Counted from the stretch's first letter, positions 4,262 through 20,437 are shown. The stretch is 20,450 bases of DNA from Patescibacteria group bacterium (GCA_018818405.1 JAHIRY010000041.1:1-20450), one strand, 5' to 3'. Numbers and translations: made by a program. The notes: a model not told the origin generated them from the sequence alone.

Positions 4262-6241
4262 ATGGGATACATCATCTGGTTCACGGTCTCGATCTTGCTG
4301 ATTCTCGGACCGATCATCGCGCCGAGCGTCCTTCCCGGATTTGCCATGGATGGTTTTTCTCAGGTGCTATGCATCATCGCGGGGAGCGCCTCGCTGGTTT
4401 TCATGGCGTTTCTGGTGGTCGTCACCAGACTGTACCAGAAACCGACCCCAGACGAAGCGCTGGTCAGAAGCGGTCTGGGCGGACTTCAGGTTGCAATGGA
4501 AAAAGGAATCCTCTTCGTTCCCCTGCTACACACATTGTCGAGAGTCAGCCTAAGAACAATAAAAATTCCGGTAAAGAGAACCGGGACGGATGCTCTGATC
4601 ACGGCAGACTATCTTCGCGCAGACCTGCAAGCGGAATTTTACATTCGGATCACGGCCGACCAAAAGGAAATCATCAGCGCTTTCAGAACATTGGGGGTAA
4701 AAGCGACGGATGAAGCGGCGATCAAAGATCTCCTCCTGGACAAACTCGTCTCCGCGCTCCGGACAGTGGCAGCGAAATCCGATCTTTTCGACCTCAACAG
4801 CAATCGTGAAAAATTTGCCAGTGATGTAAAGGGCGCTGTCACAACAGACCTCTCTCAAAATGGATTCACGCTCGAAACAGTAACAATTTCCAATCTCGAC
4901 CAGGCAGACATCCGAGCTCTCAGGGAAAGTGAAAATGTTTTCAATGCGCGCGGAACGCAAAAAGCGGCGGAAATCATCCAGGACGCTCGGGTTCGTACAA
5001 ATGTTCTGGAAAGAGAAGCCAGCGAGGCAATCGAAGCGCAAAATGTTGCAACCAGGAAAAAAATTCTAGGGCTGGATCTGGAAAGAACACAAGCTGAAGC
5101 AAACCAGGCTCTTCAAGTTTCCATCGCCGAGGCTGAATCAAAGAAGAAAGCGGAAACTTTCCGCATTCAGCAAGAGCAAGATGTCGAGGCGAGAGAGATC
5201 GAGAAGTCACAGTTGCTGGCGCAGAGAGATCTCGAAAAACAACAAGCGATTGAAACTCGTGAAATCGAGCTGGCTCAAGCGGTGGAAACCGCAGATCAAG
5301 TAAAGAAAACGGCTGTCATTCAGGCGCAACAAGCGCAGGAAGTGGCAAACATCGAACGAGAGCAAGCATCTCTCGTTGCCACGGTCGCGAAGCAGAGAGC
5401 GGAAGAAGTGGCCAGAAGAGAACAGCAGATCGCGATCGCGCAGAAGGAAGGAGAACGCGCGGCAGCGGAAGCGATTCGGCTGATGGCGGAAAAAGACAGG
5501 GAAACCAATGCGCAGGCAGTTGCCACGGTGCAGGCGGTACAGACCGCGGAACGTGAAAAAGCACAATCAGTCCTGAAGGCTTCTGCCGCGGCGGAAACTG
5601 CCTATGTGACAGAGCAACGAAAGGCAGATGCCGAGGCATATCGCGCAAAGGCGATTGCCGAAGGAAAGATGGCGGCGGCTGAAGCTGACTTCGTGGCAAG
5701 AGTGAAGGCAGCGGAAGGCGAAAAAGCGGCAGCGGAAATGCGCGCGCTGGGTGCTCGGGCAGAACAGATTGTTCCCGTTGAAATCGAAAAGGAGCGGGTC
5801 GCGGTCGATCGCGGTCGGCAGATGATCGCCGTGGATGTCGCGAAACAGCAGGTCGAAGTCGAGGCGCGGCAAGTGGAGCTGGAAAGGCAGCGACTGCAAC
5901 AGCAAGATGAACATGGAAAGGTCGCAATCGATTTCGAAATCGCAAAGCTCGAAATCGAAAGGCGGGCGGACGTTCAGATCGCGACAGCGCAAGCAACCGC
6001 GCAGATGCTGTCCTCGGTGAAGATGACTCTCTTCGGCACGCCGGAAAACGCGGCTCAGATGCAGAGAGAATTTTTCACTGCCATGCGGCTCGCAAACGCG
6101 GGAGAAGGACTGCTTTCAGGACTGGACGGCGCTCCGCGCGTCAAAGAAGTGGTGACCAAAATGGGAGAAACCGCCGGCGCTCTGGCGGACATGGTTCTCA
6201 ACAAGCCTGCGGCAACGGAAACGACGGCGGAAAAAGAATAG
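4262..6241 (+). CDS. Flotillin-like SPFH/Band-7 family protein (FloT/YqiK type) with an extended Ala/Glu/Gln-rich coiled-coil region.
   Basis: RBS aaggaggag at 4247-4255, ATG at 4262, 16 nt after the NfeD stop. An N-terminal hairpin membrane anchor is followed by an SPFH-like segment (EALVRSGLGGLQVAMEKGILFVPLLHTLSRVSLRTIKIPVKRTGTDALITADYLRADLQAEFYIRI). About 350 aa of EA/EQ/AR-rich heptad repeats and a flotillin-type C-terminus follow. The coiled-coil DNA is locally GC-rich (~55%), which generates many spurious antisense ORFs in the track. Confidence 0.85.
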   Translation: MGYIIWFTVSILLILGPIIAPSVLPGFAMDGFSQVLCIIAGSASLVFMAFLVVVTRLYQKPTPDEALVRSGLGGLQVAMEKGILFVPLLHTLSRVSLRTIKIPVKRTGTDALITADYLRADLQAEFYIRITADQKEIISAFRTLGVKATDEAAIKDLLLDKLVSALRTVAAKSDLFDLNSNREKFASDVKGAVTTDLSQNGFTLETVTISNLDQADIRALRESENVFNARGTQKAAEIIQDARVRTNVLEREASEAIEAQNVATRKKILGLDLERTQAEANQALQVSIAEAESKKKAETFRIQQEQDVEAREIEKSQLLAQRDLEKQQAIETREIELAQAVETADQVKKTAVIQAQQAQEVANIEREQASLVATVAKQRAEEVARREQQIAIAQKEGERAAAEAIRLMAEKDRETNAQAVATVQAVQTAEREKAQSVLKASAAAETAYVTEQRKADAEAYRAKAIAEGKMAAAEADFVARVKAAEGEKAAAEMRALGARAEQIVPVEIEKERVAVDRGRQMIAVDVAKQQVEVEARQVELERQRLQQQDEHGKVAIDFEIAKLEIERRADVQIATAQATAQMLSSVKMTLFGTPENAAQMQREFFTAMRLANAGEGLLSGLDGAPRVKEVVTKMGETAGALADMVLNKPAATETTAEKE

Positions 6242-7182: not shown

Positions 7183-7207
7183 AAACGGCCGCAACGCGGC
7201 CGTTTTA
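7183..7207. terminator. Bidirectional hairpin terminator after paralog A.
   Basis: cggccgc (7186-7192), loop aac, gcggccg (7196-7202), then TTTT. An A-run lies on the 5' side. Confidence 0.7.
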
Positions 7208-8034: not shown

Positions 8035-8059
8035 AAACGGCCGCAACGCGGCCGTTTTC
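8035..8059. terminator. Bidirectional hairpin terminator shared by paralog B (+) and yidD (-).
   Basis: cggccgc (8038-8044), loop aac, gcggccg (8048-8054), TTTT at 8055-8058. The sequence is identical to the terminator after paralog A. Confidence 0.7.
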
Positions 8060-8688: not shown

Positions 8689-8833
8689 ATTTTTTTTAGC
8701 TTGTCCCGCCGCGGGCGGGATAAACTTAACTCGCTTATTAGCTCGTTGACGAAAATATAGAATTTAGAAGATATACTATAGAGAAATAGACCGAATTAAT
8801 TATTGATTATCATTTGTCAATGTGGTCATGAAC

Positions 8834-9028: not shown

Positions 9029-9373
9029 ATAAATAAATCCAAAGGCGCGTGTCCGAAATTAAACAGATGAAAAAGCGGAAAAACCCGCAAAAATGTTTAA
9101 CTTAAGACATAAATTACTAAGCGGTTATATAATACATTAATGAAATTAATAAGTCAATAAGCCGAACAACCAGTCCAATGGACGAATATGGCGGTGAATT
9201 TTATTCTCTTTTTTCTGCAACAAACGACCGTCTCAGCCAAACCAATCGTTTTTCACAAGAAAATAACGAAAACCGCGATTGCGGCGATTGTCCGCCAAAA
9301 AGCGATTGGATTTTCAATGCTTGCAATATGTTTCCGGCTCCGATAAAATTTTATCAACAGCGTATTATTCGAC

Positions 9374-9423
9374 TTATACACATGATACCAACAGATTATT
9401 AACTTTCCCACAGGTTGTCCACA
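9374..9423 (+). promoter_or_regulatory. Upstream DnaA-box cluster (part of oriC / dnaA autoregulatory region).
   Basis: Three same-orientation 9-mers within 1 mismatch of TTATCCACA: TTATACACA (9374-9382), TTTCCCACA (9404-9412), TTGTCCACA (9415-9423). Confidence 0.6.
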
Positions 9424-9617: not shown

Positions 9618-9653
9618 ATTCGTAACATTCGTAATATTTGTAAATTCGTAACC
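9618..9653 (+). repeat. Four phased 9-bp direct repeats (ATTCGTAAN) immediately upstream of the dnaA start.
   Basis: ATTCGTAA at 9618, 9627 and 9645, and ATTTGTAA at 9636, with exact 9-bp periodicity. The array ends 34 nt before the dnaA ATG. Confidence 0.85.
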
Positions 9654-9686
9654 ATCGCATAACAAAACATAAACAGAAACAAAATT

Positions 9687-11060
9687 ATGGAGGAAAAAAA
9701 TCAGCAAATTTGGCAAGCGGTGCTCGGCGAGCTGGAATTGACTCTCAGCAAGGCGAGCTTTACCACTTGGTTAAAAAATACATTCATTATAGAAAATGAA
9801 GACGGACGAGTGTTGATCGGCGTGCCGAATACTTTTTCCCAGGCGTGGCTGAAACAAAAATATCATCAGCAGATCTACAAAATTCTGCAAAACAATTCAA
9901 AGGAAAGAATACGGGAAATTAATTACAAGGTGCAAACACTGAAAAATTATCAGACGCAAATAGACAACATAAAGAAAACCATTGTTGAAGAAAGGTCTGA
10001 ACCGCGTCCGGCGGAGCAAACGGCAACCCAGCAGATCATTCTCAATCCAAAGTATAGATTTGAAACTTTCATTGTAGGAAAGGGAAATGAACTGGCGCAC
10101 GCGGCGTCAAAAGCTGTGTCGGAAAATCCCGGACTCACCTATAATCCGCTGTTCATCTATGGCGGAGTCGGACTGGGAAAAACTCATTTGATGCAAGCGA
10201 TCGGCAATGCGGCCGCGCAGAGAAATTCAGCAATAAAAGTGCTGTATGTGACCTGCGAACAATTTACCAATGATTTTATTTCCGCGATTTCATCGGGAAG
10301 AGCTGATGTCTTTGCGAAAACATACAGATCGCCAGATATTCTGCTGGTTGATGACATTCAATTTTTGACGGGAAAAGAAGGAACGCAAGAAGCTTTTTTT
10401 CACACATTCAATGATCTTCACCAGAAAAACAAACAAATTATCATCACTTCCGACAGACCGCCAAAAGCGATCGCAACATTGGAAGATCGATTGCTGTCGC
10501 GATTTGAATGGGGAATGATCGCGGATATTTCTCAGCCGGATCTGGAAACCAGAATCGCGATTCTTGAATTGAAATGCAAAGAAAAGGGACTTCCTCTGGA
10601 TCGGGACATTATCAATTACATTACATTGAACATTCAGAACAATATTCGAGAATTGGAAGGCGCGCTCAATAAAATTATGGCTTATTATCAGCTGAACAAA
10701 ATAACTCCGACGCTCGAAAACATAAAGAAAATTCTTTTTTCCATTTCCGCTTCCAGCAAAAAGAACGGAGCTGTTTCCGTCCGGCAATTGATTGAAACTG
10801 TTTGTGAATTTTACGAATTGGAAATGGAGGAAATGATGGGAAAAAGCCGGCAAAAAAGATTGGCATTCCCCAGACAAATAATAATGTACTTGCTCCGCGA
10901 AGAAATTCACGCATCATATCCGATGATCGGCCATGAACTCGGCGGCCGCGACCACACGACAGCAATGCATGCTCATGAAAAGATTGCGAGAGTGATTGAA
11001 GAAGATGAAAAAGTGCGGCAGGAAATCAATTTGATCAAACAAAAGGTCTATTCTTGTTGA
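9687..11060 (+). CDS. dnaA: Chromosomal replication initiator protein DnaA.
   Basis: 457 aa. Walker A GVGLGKTHLMQAIGN, Walker B LLVDDIQFL, sensor IITSDRPP, and C-terminal DNA-binding helix DHTTAMHAHEKI. Stop TGA is immediately followed by TAA. Confidence 0.97.
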   Translation: MEEKNQQIWQAVLGELELTLSKASFTTWLKNTFIIENEDGRVLIGVPNTFSQAWLKQKYHQQIYKILQNNSKERIREINYKVQTLKNYQTQIDNIKKTIVEERSEPRPAEQTATQQIILNPKYRFETFIVGKGNELAHAASKAVSENPGLTYNPLFIYGGVGLGKTHLMQAIGNAAAQRNSAIKVLYVTCEQFTNDFISAISSGRADVFAKTYRSPDILLVDDIQFLTGKEGTQEAFFHTFNDLHQKNKQIIITSDRPPKAIATLEDRLLSRFEWGMIADISQPDLETRIAILELKCKEKGLPLDRDIINYITLNIQNNIRELEGALNKIMAYYQLNKITPTLENIKKILFSISASSKKNGAVSVRQLIETVCEFYELEMEEMMGKSRQKRLAFPRQIIMYLLREEIHASYPMIGHELGGRDHTTAMHAHEKIARVIEEDEKVRQEINLIKQKVYSC

Positions 11061-11155
11061 TAAACTGTGAATAAACGGCGAAAAAGAATTGAAAAAACGT
11101 GTTTATAAACATTTTCCGATGTGAATAAAAAATAACGGGTTTCCCGAAAATGCAC

Positions 11156-11300
11156 TTTTCCACAGTTATCCACAATGTATCCACCTCCTTGCTGACAGAC
11201 TTATTCCACCAGCACTTTTTCTAAACTTAGCCCTTGAACGCACTTATCCACCAATATCCACAGCCTTATTATTATTATTAAATAAATATATATATAGTTA
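11156..11300 (+). promoter_or_regulatory. oriC core: DnaA-box cluster plus AT-rich DNA unwinding element (DUE) in the dnaA-dnaN intergenic region.
   Basis: Same-orientation boxes TTTTCCACA (11156-11164), TTATCCACA (perfect, 11166-11174), GTATCCACC (11177-11185), TTATCCACC (11244-11252) and ATATCCACA (11254-11262). These are followed by ttattattattattaaataaatatatatatag at 11265-11297, directly upstream of dnaN. Confidence 0.85.
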
Positions 11301-11316
11301 ACGTCTATAACACCCT

Positions 11317-12444
11317 ATGAAACTAACTTGCCTGCAAGAAAATTTAAATTCAGGATTACAAACGACCGGACATTTAGTAAACAAGAACGTGAACCTGCCC
11401 ATTCTCAACAATGTTTTACTGGAAGCGAAGGATGGAACATTGAAACTATCGAGCACTAATCTGGAAATAGGAATAAGCGCGACCGTTCGATGCAAAGTGG
11501 AAACCGAAGGCGCGTTCACTGTTGACGCAAAACTTTTGGCTGATTATGTGAATCTGTTGCCGAATGATCAGATTAACATCGAAAAAGACGCGGACGATTC
11601 GTTGAAATTGACCTGCCGAAGTTCTTCCACAAAAATAAAAGGTATTGCGTCCGACGATTTTCCGGTAATTCCTCAATTGGAAAAAGAAAAACCTTATAAA
11701 GTGAATATCAAGGATTTTAAAAAAGCATTGTCTCAAGTTATCTTCTCTGTTGCCGTGTCTGAAACCAGACCGGAAATTAGCGGAGTGCTGATGACTTTCA
11801 ATAAATTTGAGGCAAACAGTTTATATTTGGCGGGAACAGACAGTTATCGTTTGGCTGAAAAGAAAATTGCAGTGGCTGAAAATACCGAGGAAAAGGAAGT
11901 GATTGTTCCGGTAAAAGCATTGCAAGAGGTTTTGCGAATTTTGAATGGTTTGAAAGATCAGATGAATGCGCCGGAATCCATTGATTTATTTATCTCAGAC
12001 AATCAAATATTGTTTTCCGGTGAAGGTTTTGAATTGATTTCCCGACTGATCGAAGGACAATATCCTGATTATAAACAAATAATCCCCAAAGAAACGAAAA
12101 CAACCGTGACTGTTTCCACTTCGGACTTGACGAAAGTTATAAAAACCGTAGCGTTATTTTCAAAAACCGGTATTTTCGATGTAAATTTGGTTTTTGATCC
12201 GGGCAGAGGCCTAGTAATTCGCGCGGCCAATATTCAAGTCGGCGAGAGCACTTCTGAAATTGATGTTGAATTTGTGGGAACAAACAATGAAAGCACGATC
12301 AATTATCGTTATTTGTTGGAAGGATTGAGCAATATTGACGCATCGGAAATAAAAATCAGCTTGGTTGACGGAAATATTCCGCTTTTGATAAATCCGAAAG
12401 ACAATGACGATTATTTGTACATTATTATGCCGATTCGGCAATAA
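11317..12444 (+). CDS. dnaN: DNA polymerase III beta sliding clamp DnaN.
   Basis: 375 aa with typical clamp N-terminus (MKLTCLQENLNSGLQTTGHLV) and three-domain length. Immediately downstream of dnaA. Confidence 0.95.
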   Translation: MKLTCLQENLNSGLQTTGHLVNKNVNLPILNNVLLEAKDGTLKLSSTNLEIGISATVRCKVETEGAFTVDAKLLADYVNLLPNDQINIEKDADDSLKLTCRSSSTKIKGIASDDFPVIPQLEKEKPYKVNIKDFKKALSQVIFSVAVSETRPEISGVLMTFNKFEANSLYLAGTDSYRLAEKKIAVAENTEEKEVIVPVKALQEVLRILNGLKDQMNAPESIDLFISDNQILFSGEGFELISRLIEGQYPDYKQIIPKETKTTVTVSTSDLTKVIKTVALFSKTGIFDVNLVFDPGRGLVIRAANIQVGESTSEIDVEFVGTNNESTINYRYLLEGLSNIDASEIKISLVDGNIPLLINPKDNDDYLYIIMPIRQ

Positions 12445-12445
12445 A

Positions 12446-12492
12446 AAAAAATGTAGAGGCGCATTGCAATGCGCCTCTACATTTTTTTTTGT
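12446..12492. terminator. Perfectly palindromic bidirectional terminator after dnaN.
   Basis: AAAAAAAAATGTAGAGGCGCATTG / CAATGCGCCTCTACATTTTTTTTT, a 14-bp perfect stem flanked by A9 and T9. Confidence 0.85.
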
Positions 12493-12523
12493 GAAAACGG
12501 TTTTTTTTACAGAAGAACCGTTT
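12487..12523 (+). terminator. Second hairpin plus T-run after dnaN.
   Basis: aacggtt ... aaccgtt stem followed by tgtttt. Confidence 0.5.
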
Positions 12524-12638
12524 GTTTTGACTTGGAATAGAAAAGAAAGGATCTCGATTCTCGCTCATTGAGAGAAATTTAAATATTTTTGGATGAATAA
12601 GCTTAATTTCATTGTAGTGAATGCGTCCGAATACGCGC

Positions 12639-12688
12639 CGGATTTATGAGTAGTGGCGGGTCTAGACCCGCCACTACTCATAAATCCG
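12639..12688. repeat. Perfect 50-bp palindrome (25+25) centred on TCTAGA.
   Basis: cggatttatgagtagtggcgggtct|agacccgccactactcataaatccg with no mismatch. There is no flanking U-run on either strand. Confidence 0.95.
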
Positions 12689-12780
12689 CGGATGCCGTTC
12701 GTTTGAAAGATTAAAAGAAAAAGGCGGGGAGTTTGTTCCCCTCGCACAAAAATCATTTTAATTCCCGAAGATAATCGGAA

Positions 12781-12812
12781 ATAAAAAAAACACGGAAGAA
12801 TTCCGCGTTTAA
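12781..12812 (-). terminator. Rho-independent terminator of the tRNA-Gly/tRNA-Leu transcript (minus strand).
   Basis: Minus-strand sense aaacgcggaattcttccgtgTTTTTTTT. Confidence 0.65.
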
Positions 12813-12903
12813 CAATTTCATCTTCGTATATTATGAATGGCTTGCCATGAAGTCACGCAAACTTCGCTTATCCGTGATTTTCAGTTTAAAAGCGTGTACT
12901 TCA

Positions 12904-12990
12904 TGGTGCCGCGGGCCGGAATCGAACCGGCACGGATTTGCATCCGCAGGATTTTAAGTCCTGTGTGTCTACCAGTTTCACCACCGCGGC
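12904..12990 (-). tRNA. tRNA-Leu (anticodon TAA).
   Basis: 87 nt. Acceptor gccgcgg/ccgcggc, anticodon arm cagga-cttaaaa-tcctg, 15-nt variable arm cggatgcaaatccgt, T-arm gccgg-ttcgatt-ccggc, encoded CCA. Confidence 0.92.
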
Positions 12991-13005
12991 TCGCGTTTTG
13001 AATTC

Positions 13006-13079
13006 TGGAGCGGGAGACGGGATTCCCTTCGATGCGACTCAGGGTCGGCTTCTCATCCTCTTTAAAATAAAACTTCTTT
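13006..13079 (-). repeat. tRNA-trailer insertion element: conserved ~54-nt core followed by a 20-nt direct copy of the tRNA-Gly 3' end (incl. CCA).
   Basis: 13006-13025 (tggagcgggagacgggattc) is identical to tRNA-Gly 3' end 13080-13099. The core 13026-13079 is homologous to the cores of the tRNA-Lys-associated repeats at 20121-20361. Confidence 0.8.
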
Positions 13080-13155
13080 TGGAGCGGGAGACGGGATTCG
13101 AACCCGCGACCTCAACCTTGGCAAGGTTGCGCTCTACCAACTAAGCTACTCCCGC
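13080..13155 (-). tRNA. tRNA-Gly (anticodon GCC).
   Basis: 76 nt. Acceptor gcgggag/ctcccgc, anticodon arm caacc-ttgccaa-ggttg, T-arm gcggg-ttcgaat-cccgt, encoded CCA. Confidence 0.92.
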
Positions 13156-20120: not shown

Positions 20121-20361
20121 TGGCGGGCGCAGAGGGACTCCCCTCGGCGCGGCTCGGTGCAGGCTTCTCGTCCCTCTTTTTCAATAAAATCTTTTGTGTT
20201 TGGTGGGCGCAGAGGGACTCCCCTCGGCGCGGCTCGGTGCAGGCTTCTCGTCCCTCTTTTTCAATGAAACATTTTTGTGTTTGGTGGGCGCAGAGGGACT
20301 CCCCTCGCGCGACTCAGGGCAGGCTTCTCGTCCCTCTTTTTCAATGAAACATTTTTGTGTT
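20121..20361 (-). repeat. Three tandem ~80-bp direct repeats, each a 20-nt copy of the tRNA-Lys 3' end (incl. CCA) plus a ~60-nt conserved core, abutting the tRNA-Lys gene.
   Basis: Units 20121-20200, 20201-20281 and 20282-20361 all begin tgg(t/c)gggcgcagagggactc, the reverse complement of the tRNA-Lys 3' terminal 20 nt. The unit nearest the tRNA is the best conserved. They generate the spurious + ORFs 20120..20347 and 20194..20403. Confidence 0.9.
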
Positions 20362-20437
20362 TGGTGGGCGCAGAGGGACTCGAACCCCCGGCCAAGTGCT
20401 TAAGAGGCACCTGCTCTACCGACTGAGCTATGCGCCC
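20362..20437 (-). tRNA. tRNA-Lys (anticodon CTT).
   Basis: 76 nt. Acceptor gggcgca/tgcgccc, D-arm gctc-agtcggta-gagc, anticodon arm ggtgc-ctcttaa-gcact, T-arm ggggg-ttcgagt-ccctc, encoded CCA. Confidence 0.92.

Follow-up and report, generated by a model that had tools for sequence, protein, structure and literature searches.

The window, that is, the whole stretch of DNA analysed in this work, is a complete contig of 20,450 bp from an NCBI MAG of an uncultured member of the Patescibacteria (CPR), placed near Falkowbacteria and Kuenenbacteria. The gene order is yidD-rnpA-(rpmH)-dnaA-dnaN (plus strand), a 459-bp spacer, tRNA-Leu(UAA)/tRNA-Gly(GCC) (minus strand), spoU (minus strand) and ruvB (plus strand). 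The relatives of its DnaN come from MAGs of Falkowbacteria, Kuenenbacteria and Parcubacteria; a search of 5.8 billion proteins gave a nearest DnaN with 72% identity, and in either nucleotide collection the best locus reaches 71–72%. The spacer harbours a perfect palindrome of 50 bp (12639–12688), evident in the sequence and recovered by a repeat finder. DnaA boxes with at most one mismatch form two clusters, upstream of dnaA (9351–9415) and between dnaA and dnaN (11055–11254), plus two isolated boxes. The palindrome lies about 1.4 kb from the nearer cluster, and the window scan at the same threshold placed no DnaA box near it.

The dnaN gene (11317–12444, plus strand; MBU1132498.1), which encodes Pfam DNA_pol3_beta domains, is transcribed towards the palindrome. 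A bidirectional terminator (12443–12490), itself a perfect 24+24 palindrome with the form A9-stem-T9, is found at its 3′ end, followed by a second terminator-like hairpin on the plus strand (12495–12523, terminator scan). The tRNA operon is on the minus strand, convergent on dnaN: a promoter-like site (13207–13180, promoter/terminator scan) precedes its first gene, tRNA-Gly(GCC) (13080–13155), which is followed by tRNA-Leu(UAA) (12904–12990). A trailer hairpin with a stem of about 12 bp (12846–12903, minus strand; TGAAGTACACGC...GCGTGACTTCA) abuts tRNA-Leu; beyond it, the terminator scan reported a proximal terminator with a 10-bp stem and then T8 (12788–12810, minus strand) and a distal terminator-like hairpin with a T-run (12726–12741, minus strand; tail GCCTTTTTCT). 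MBU1132499.1, the accession next after that of DnaN, lies across the palindrome from dnaN and is a TrmH/SpoU methylase. Plain sequence borders the palindrome over 115 nt on the dnaN side and 37 nt on the tRNA side, and the window scan gave no promoter-like site next to it. These hairpins, together with the DnaA-box clusters, bear out an earlier sequence-only reading of this DNA, which had placed the palindrome between two sets of convergent terminators near oriC. Judging from the terminators on both sides, the gap that holds it is presumably untranscribed.

The palindrome consists of two inverted arms of 25 nt that pair without a mismatch and meet without a spacer. The left arm (12639–12663) is CGGATTTATGAGTAGTGGCGGGTCT and the right arm (12664–12688) is AGACCCGCCACTACTCATAAATCCG; the repeat finder scored them as 100% complementary. 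Pairing is Watson–Crick right through the centre, TCTAGA, with no G-T pair and no asymmetric loop, and the same hairpin is formed by both strands. The symmetry stops at 50 bp, where C12638 stands opposite C12689. About 2e-11 perfect 25+25 palindromes are expected per 20,450 random bases under a uniform model, and the longest perfect arm in 40 first-order Markov shuffles of the window, with loops of 0–8 nt, was 8–12 nt against the 25 observed. A chance origin is excluded, as had been claimed when the perfect repeat around TCTAGA was first noticed. The predicted fold has −30 kcal/mol as single-stranded DNA (z about −10) and −46 kcal/mol as RNA (z about −9), with a stem of 23–25 bp. The pentanucleotide CGGAT (12689–12693, plus strand), read directly in the sequence, abuts the right arm and repeats the 5 nt with which the left arm opens; joined to positions 12684–12688 it forms a small 10-bp palindrome, ATCCGCGGAT. 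At 5 nt, the match to the start of the left arm is of low significance.

The bases after the stem are CGGATGCCGTTCG on the plus strand and GCGCGTATTCGG on the minus strand. The palindrome thus has the stable G+C-rich stem-loop of an intrinsic terminator and lacks the T-run directly after the stem, and the terminator scan did not report it on either strand. The earlier statement that, having no U-run, it is not a canonical intrinsic terminator agrees with both results. Elsewhere in the window, identical 23-nt terminator hairpins (AAACGGCCGCAACGCGGCCGTTT) occur at 7183–7205 and 8035–8057, each 3′ of an ORF. The two ORFs are adjacent, encode 239 aa and 233 aa and have no Pfam match; the twin terminators may reflect a tandem gene duplication.

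Searches for further copies covered the window, a longer ENA contig of the same genome that runs beyond the window end (L166), and three public collections. Allowing up to 3 mismatches, the search of the 20.4 kb of the window recovered no sites but the two arms; with up to 6 mismatches in 25, no second copy was found in the window plus L166, about 30 kb or about 3% of a genome of about 1 Mb. A 21-mer of the arm had no match in 185,579 GTDB species genomes (one genome each), in JGI metagenomes (241 million records) or in IMG/VR, and the core 22-mer and the outer-arm 18-mer of the palindrome had none in IMG/VR. In all of these, the arm occurs at this locus alone, and a dispersed repeat family is not seen. 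Exact-protein look-ups with a 63-aa ORF across the palindrome, with rnpA and with rpmH found nothing on record, and a PNPase query for more of the same genome did not return the exact protein.

No known family accounts for the palindrome either. At the Rfam gathering threshold only the tRNAs pass; in a scan by E-value the palindrome reached 17–26 bits, against gathering values of 70–195, in generic hairpin matches to miRNA precursors. The blastn comparison of the whole spacer with phage and plasmid records gave chance matches (E about 0.4), none touching the palindrome. No transposase, integrase, RAYT or protelomerase domain was found by Pfam among the window ORFs, no protelomerase is among the genes listed for L166, and parS had no match with up to 3 mismatches. 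The flanks, CGCGC and CGGAT, form no direct repeat and hence no target-site duplication. As for the terminal inverted repeats of insertion sequences, the arms have a spacer of 0 and no match in the phage and plasmid records.

To place the palindrome among relatives, 160 dnaN-anchored loci (1.3 Mb) were compared, 80 from GTDB genomes and 80 from JGI metagenomes, with a perfect-stem scan plus a mismatch-tolerant palindrome scan. Since the nearest DnaN is just 71–72% identical, intergenic DNA cannot be aligned with these relatives. No sequence similar to the palindrome was found in the 160 loci by blastn-short, and none of them has a palindrome of comparable length without a T-tract in the dnaN-tRNA spacer. 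The palindrome is thus missing from all 160 dnaN loci and is therefore not a conserved origin-proximal site, which leaves a conserved protein site near oriC unsupported. The refuting test set by the sequence-only reading, which also asks for chimeric reads, thus came out half-way: the arms were absent elsewhere in everything searched, and the relatives do not have the palindrome. About 46 perfect stems of at least 15 nt, up to 28 nt, were found in the same loci, many of them directly 3′ of dnaN, and nearly all are bidirectional terminators with an A-run and a T-run. Because perfect long hairpins are common in the relatives, palindromes of this size are tolerated in the clade. The argument that such palindromes are usually unstable in bacteria is consequently weaker than the sequence-only reading had stated, given the many perfect hairpins with 18–28 nt arms in relatives and the perfect 24+24 dnaN terminator of the window itself.

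Some of the hairpins in relatives are of another type. Long, perfect or near-perfect hairpins TCCAGAWGTAGRG...CYCTACWTCTGGA are present in L002 (6194–6235), L003 (5416–5457) and L005 (5493–5540). They start with the 3′ TCCA of tRNA-Gly or, in L005, with that of a spacer copy of the tRNA-Gly 3′ end, and show compensatory changes between genomes. The stem TGTAGRG...CYCTACA occurs as a hairpin only four times in the 1.3 Mb, always at the dnaN-tRNA locus: in L002, in L005, in L017 (5211–5245) and in the dnaN terminator of the window (12443–12490). It may be a conserved processing or termination hairpin. A kinship of the palindrome arm with this dnaN-terminator family was considered and rejected; the best local match (GTAGTGGCG against GTAGAGGCG) was equalled by 188 of 5000 shuffles, which is not significant after five comparisons.

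The genes around the spacer are conserved in the closest relatives, in the order yidD-rnpA-dnaA-dnaN ... spoU-ruvB-(p80)-bPH-spoIID; the variable part is the dnaN-spoU interval, which ranges from 0.9 to 3.5 kb. Downstream of dnaN, the strand of the tRNA-Gly/tRNA-Leu(UAA) cassette varies between close relatives, plus in some and minus in others (L002–L014, L086–L098), and some relatives have two tRNA-Leu(UAA) genes. The cassette of the window has the minus-strand orientation, in which it meets forks leaving oriC head-on.

Copies of tRNA 3′ ends are frequent here. In the Gly-Leu spacer (12991–13079), 20 nt of the 3′ end of tRNA-Gly are repeated in direct orientation, and tRNA-Lys (20362–20437, minus strand) is followed by three tandem units of 80 nt (20121–20381), each made of about 60 nt with the core GAGAAGCCnnCCCTGAGTCGC and of 19 nt copied from the 3′ end of tRNA-Lys. 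One unit homologous to these lies between tRNA-Gly and tRNA-Leu and ends in the 20-nt tRNA-Gly copy; a related unit is in tandem at the tRNA-Gly of L014 (7052–7262). The tRNA-linked units fold no better than shuffles and could be integration (att) scars or a small tRNA-targeting element. In the Falkowbacteria MAG L009, the dnaN-tRNA-Leu spacer has a tandem array of 34 nt × 5.5 (5208–5394; 93% identical) whose units each carry the inverted repeat GCTGGCCTGCCAGC, iteron- or centromere-like in form. By these sequence comparisons, the dnaN-tRNA spacer of the clade is a hot spot of structural change, which gathers hairpins, tandem arrays and duplications of tRNA 3′ ends.

The same population is represented by three assemblies, namely the window (NCBI/JGI), Logan and ENA; exact-protein look-ups gave the Logan and ENA contigs and counted one more contig, of 10–20 kb, that bears dnaA and dnaN. 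Logan contigs (SRR6514274) correspond to window positions 9620–12472 and 17793–13113. The ENA contig k141_715468 (36 kb) corresponds to 17793–12904 with two mismatches (99.96% over 4.9 kb) and leaves the window sequence exactly after the CCA end of tRNA-Leu (L082 4891–5583). Its tail carries a terminator and an orphan ORF of 158 aa with 56% G+C; the ORF has no Pfam match and no homologue but itself, and the tail matches nothing in the window. This divergence may reflect an island at tRNA-Leu that is particular to one strain, another copy of tRNA-Leu, or a chimeric join. Positions 12473–12903, with the palindrome, are thus backed by one assembly only, the Logan and ENA contigs not covering them. 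The Logan stop at 12472 is uninformative on 12639–12688, because a de Bruijn graph with k = 31 breaks on entering the terminator, a perfect palindrome of 48 bp. Two bases also set the window apart from both ENA and Logan: with T13991 in place of C, the Arg codon CGA at position 51 of ruvB becomes the stop TGA, which splits the 336-aa RuvB, and C16602 in place of G gives W321 versus C in a SpoIID-like protein. Either real strain variants or errors of the window assembly would explain these differences. Three tRNA-Lys-linked units are present in the window versus one in the ENA assembly; therefore, the assemblies disagree at repeats.

These disagreements bear on whether the palindrome is an assembly artefact, in which the arms would be genuine beside their own flanks, their juxtaposition having been made by the assembler or by chimeric fold-back reads, perhaps with loss of internal sequence. 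Such an origin is unlikely, though several observations favour it: the palindrome is in the NCBI/JGI contig alone, that contig deviates from both others at the same two bases, one of them a stop codon in ruvB, the tRNA-Lys repeats are counted differently, and fold-back palindromes do occur in such data. One of these, a textbook case, is a palindrome with 41-bp arms at the very start (1–91) of L100, a SPAdes contig of 1,966 bp with 2.8x coverage. The palindrome of the window, however, is internal, with 12.6 kb of contig on one side and 7.8 kb on the other, and its flanks are distinct and native-looking, with proper terminators for both convergent units. The join dnaN - tRNA-Leu/Gly - spoU - ruvB has the conserved order of the relatives, a fold-back chimeric read would give arms of read length and not 25 nt followed by unrelated sequence, a k-mer longer than 26 across the centre must be present in the reads, and the Logan break is the one expected at the terminator palindrome with k = 31. 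Synthetic linkers are often perfect palindromes with a central restriction site. A linker or mate-pair junction would disrupt the gene order, which is intact across the junction, and the sequence is not known to match any adapter; this origin was rejected. Our literature search on palindromes as assembly artefacts and on CPR palindromes returned nothing specific.

The most plausible explanation, which we hold tentatively, is that the palindrome is a young or recently perfected inverted repeat, produced by replication template switching in a repeat-prone spacer and having little or no function. Synthesis would have reached a short pre-existing palindrome, TCTAGA, where the nascent strand would switch to the complementary or nascent strand, copy about 22–25 nt backwards and go back to the original template, possibly at a CGGAT/CCG microhomology at 12689; the CGGAT at 12689–12693 could be the trace of this return. 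A single event of this kind would leave a perfectly complementary stem, symmetric through its centre. Template switching makes perfect stems in one event (PMC8794818), and in bacteria it corrects imperfect inverted repeats to perfect ones (PMC5941160, PMC7202029). Copying at the DNA level gives exact symmetry, which selection at the RNA level does not need. The single copy, the lack of conservation, the absence of a partner gene, the insulation by terminators and the repeat-prone spacer are consistent with this origin. One arm is an exact reverse-complement copy of the adjacent sequence, as a template switch would leave it; since there is no close relative, the next DnaN being 72% identical, the ancestral state cannot be reconstructed and the switch is not demonstrated. 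Against a young age, the functional dnaN terminator 150 bp away is likewise a perfect zero-loop palindrome; selection or homogenisation may maintain the perfect pairing of hairpins in the clade, and perfection alone is no proof of youth. The search for copies in about 3% of the genome and the single assembly of 12473–12903 also count against a template switch. Its function would at most be that of a hairpin of 23–25 bp, formed in transcripts that read through from either side, which adds to the barrier between the dnaN and tRNA units. Where selection or a recent origin had been proposed to explain the persistence of the palindrome, the recent origin is the part that fits best.

The functional candidates of the sequence-only reading, namely a protein site, an RNase III-type hairpin and a MITE, gained no support. 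An RNA-level element, transcribed by read-through or from an unrecognised promoter, would act through its 23–25 bp duplex as an RNase III substrate, a 3′-end stabiliser, a terminator without U-tract or a roadblock. RNase III needs a stem of at least two helical turns, a length that the very stable RNA hairpin has. The enzyme is encoded by rnc at 8722–9417 of L166, just past the tRNA-Lys end of the window on the longer ENA contig, so the organism could process long perfect RNA duplexes; in the relatives L002, L003 and L005, moreover, long T-tract-less hairpins lie beside tRNA-Gly, and their compensatory changes suggest that those hairpins act as RNA. Nevertheless, transcription should be low between two pairs of terminators, no promoter-like site is nearby, no Rfam family matches and no relative conserves the element, and an RNA function requires neither loop symmetry nor absence of G-U pairs; we regard this role as rather doubtful. 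A cis-acting site at the DNA level, bound by a dimeric or tetrameric protein or used by a recombinase or hairpin-processing enzyme (cruciform, invertase, tyrosine-recombinase core or protelomerase-like) and maybe tied to flipping or replacement of the tRNA cassette, is improbable. It would suit the perfect dyad symmetry, the position near oriC in DNA that is apparently untranscribed, the adjoining tRNA-Gly/Leu cassette in both orientations among close relatives, the difference between two assemblies of the population past the tRNA-Leu 3′ end and the iteron-like array of L009 in the same spacer. But no counterpart exists at the 160 related origins, the window encodes no recombinase, ParB-like protein or protelomerase, the cassette has no partner site beside it, and neither a parS-like sequence nor a DnaA box is near; moreover, 50 bp of perfect symmetry far exceeds typical operators, and a fully symmetric core gives a recombinase no directionality. 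The more specific proposal of a lineage-specific site beside oriC, cruciform-forming or bound by a dimer for recombination or processing, that might help to invert or replace the tRNA-Gly/Leu cassette and the sequence past tRNA-Leu, is very improbable. As improbable as a cis-acting site in general is a remnant or minimal form of a mobile element, whether foldback or MITE-like terminal inverted repeats without internal sequence or a member of the REP/REPIN type. Terminal inverted repeats and REP units typically have arms of 25 nt, the spacer is an insertion hot spot with tRNA-3′-end duplications at tRNA-Gly and tRNA-Lys, and the copy check covered about 30 kb of the genome; yet a second copy with up to 6 mismatches is lacking in the window and L166, as are the arm in all three public collections, a target-site duplication, a transposase or RAYT gene in the window, and similarity to plasmid or phage records. 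The suggested MITE or dispersed repeat is therefore unsupported.

In summary of its nature, the palindrome looks like an orphan long perfect intergenic inverted repeat, a known kind of feature and not a new system. If it is real and young, as a template-switch origin would have it, it would be a clean natural case of a long perfect hairpin made in one step in a member of the CPR, whose replication and repair have hardly been studied, and would show that perfect palindromes of 50 bp are tolerated next to an origin. Taken alone it bears on no long-standing question, and its chief practical use is as a flag for the locus. The dnaN-tRNA spacer is a hot spot of structural change, with the cassette inverted between relatives and tRNA 3′ ends duplicated, and assemblies of one population disagree there, so claims about it need read-level validation.

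Several known systems resemble the palindrome. Bidirectional intrinsic terminators, such as that at 12443–12490 and the dozens with 15–28 nt arms in relatives, are also long perfect hairpins, the same on both strands, between convergent units. In contrast, the palindrome has no A-run or T-run flanks and carries its G+C-rich part at the top and not at the base of the stem; the terminator scan misses it, and four terminator-like hairpins are already around it. REP/REPIN and MITE or foldback elements are likewise short, palindromic, non-coding and intergenic, with an arm of about 25 nt, but they are multi-copy and usually imperfect with a spacer, and MITEs have target-site duplications, whereas the palindrome is single and perfect with zero spacer and shows none of these features. 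Protelomerase target sites (telRL of linear plasmid prophages of the N15, PY54 and phiKO2 type) are perfect or near-perfect palindromes of about 42–56 bp, cut symmetrically around the centre. The dyad symmetry over some 40–56 bp through the centre is shared; the palindrome differs in having no protelomerase gene in the window, a chromosomal housekeeping setting by oriC and not a phage or plasmid one, and no sign of linear ends. Fold-back artefacts are similarly perfect inverted repeats seen in a single metagenome assembly; they lie at contig ends with long arms set by read or k-mer length, while the palindrome is internal, with short arms and native flanks that keep the gene order. Repeats made or perfected by template switching, quasipalindrome correction included, share with the palindrome the perfect complementarity reached in one step, the symmetry at the DNA level, the intergenic position and the need for no associated genes; in comparison with those studied, its 25-nt arms with zero spacer are at the long end of the range described.
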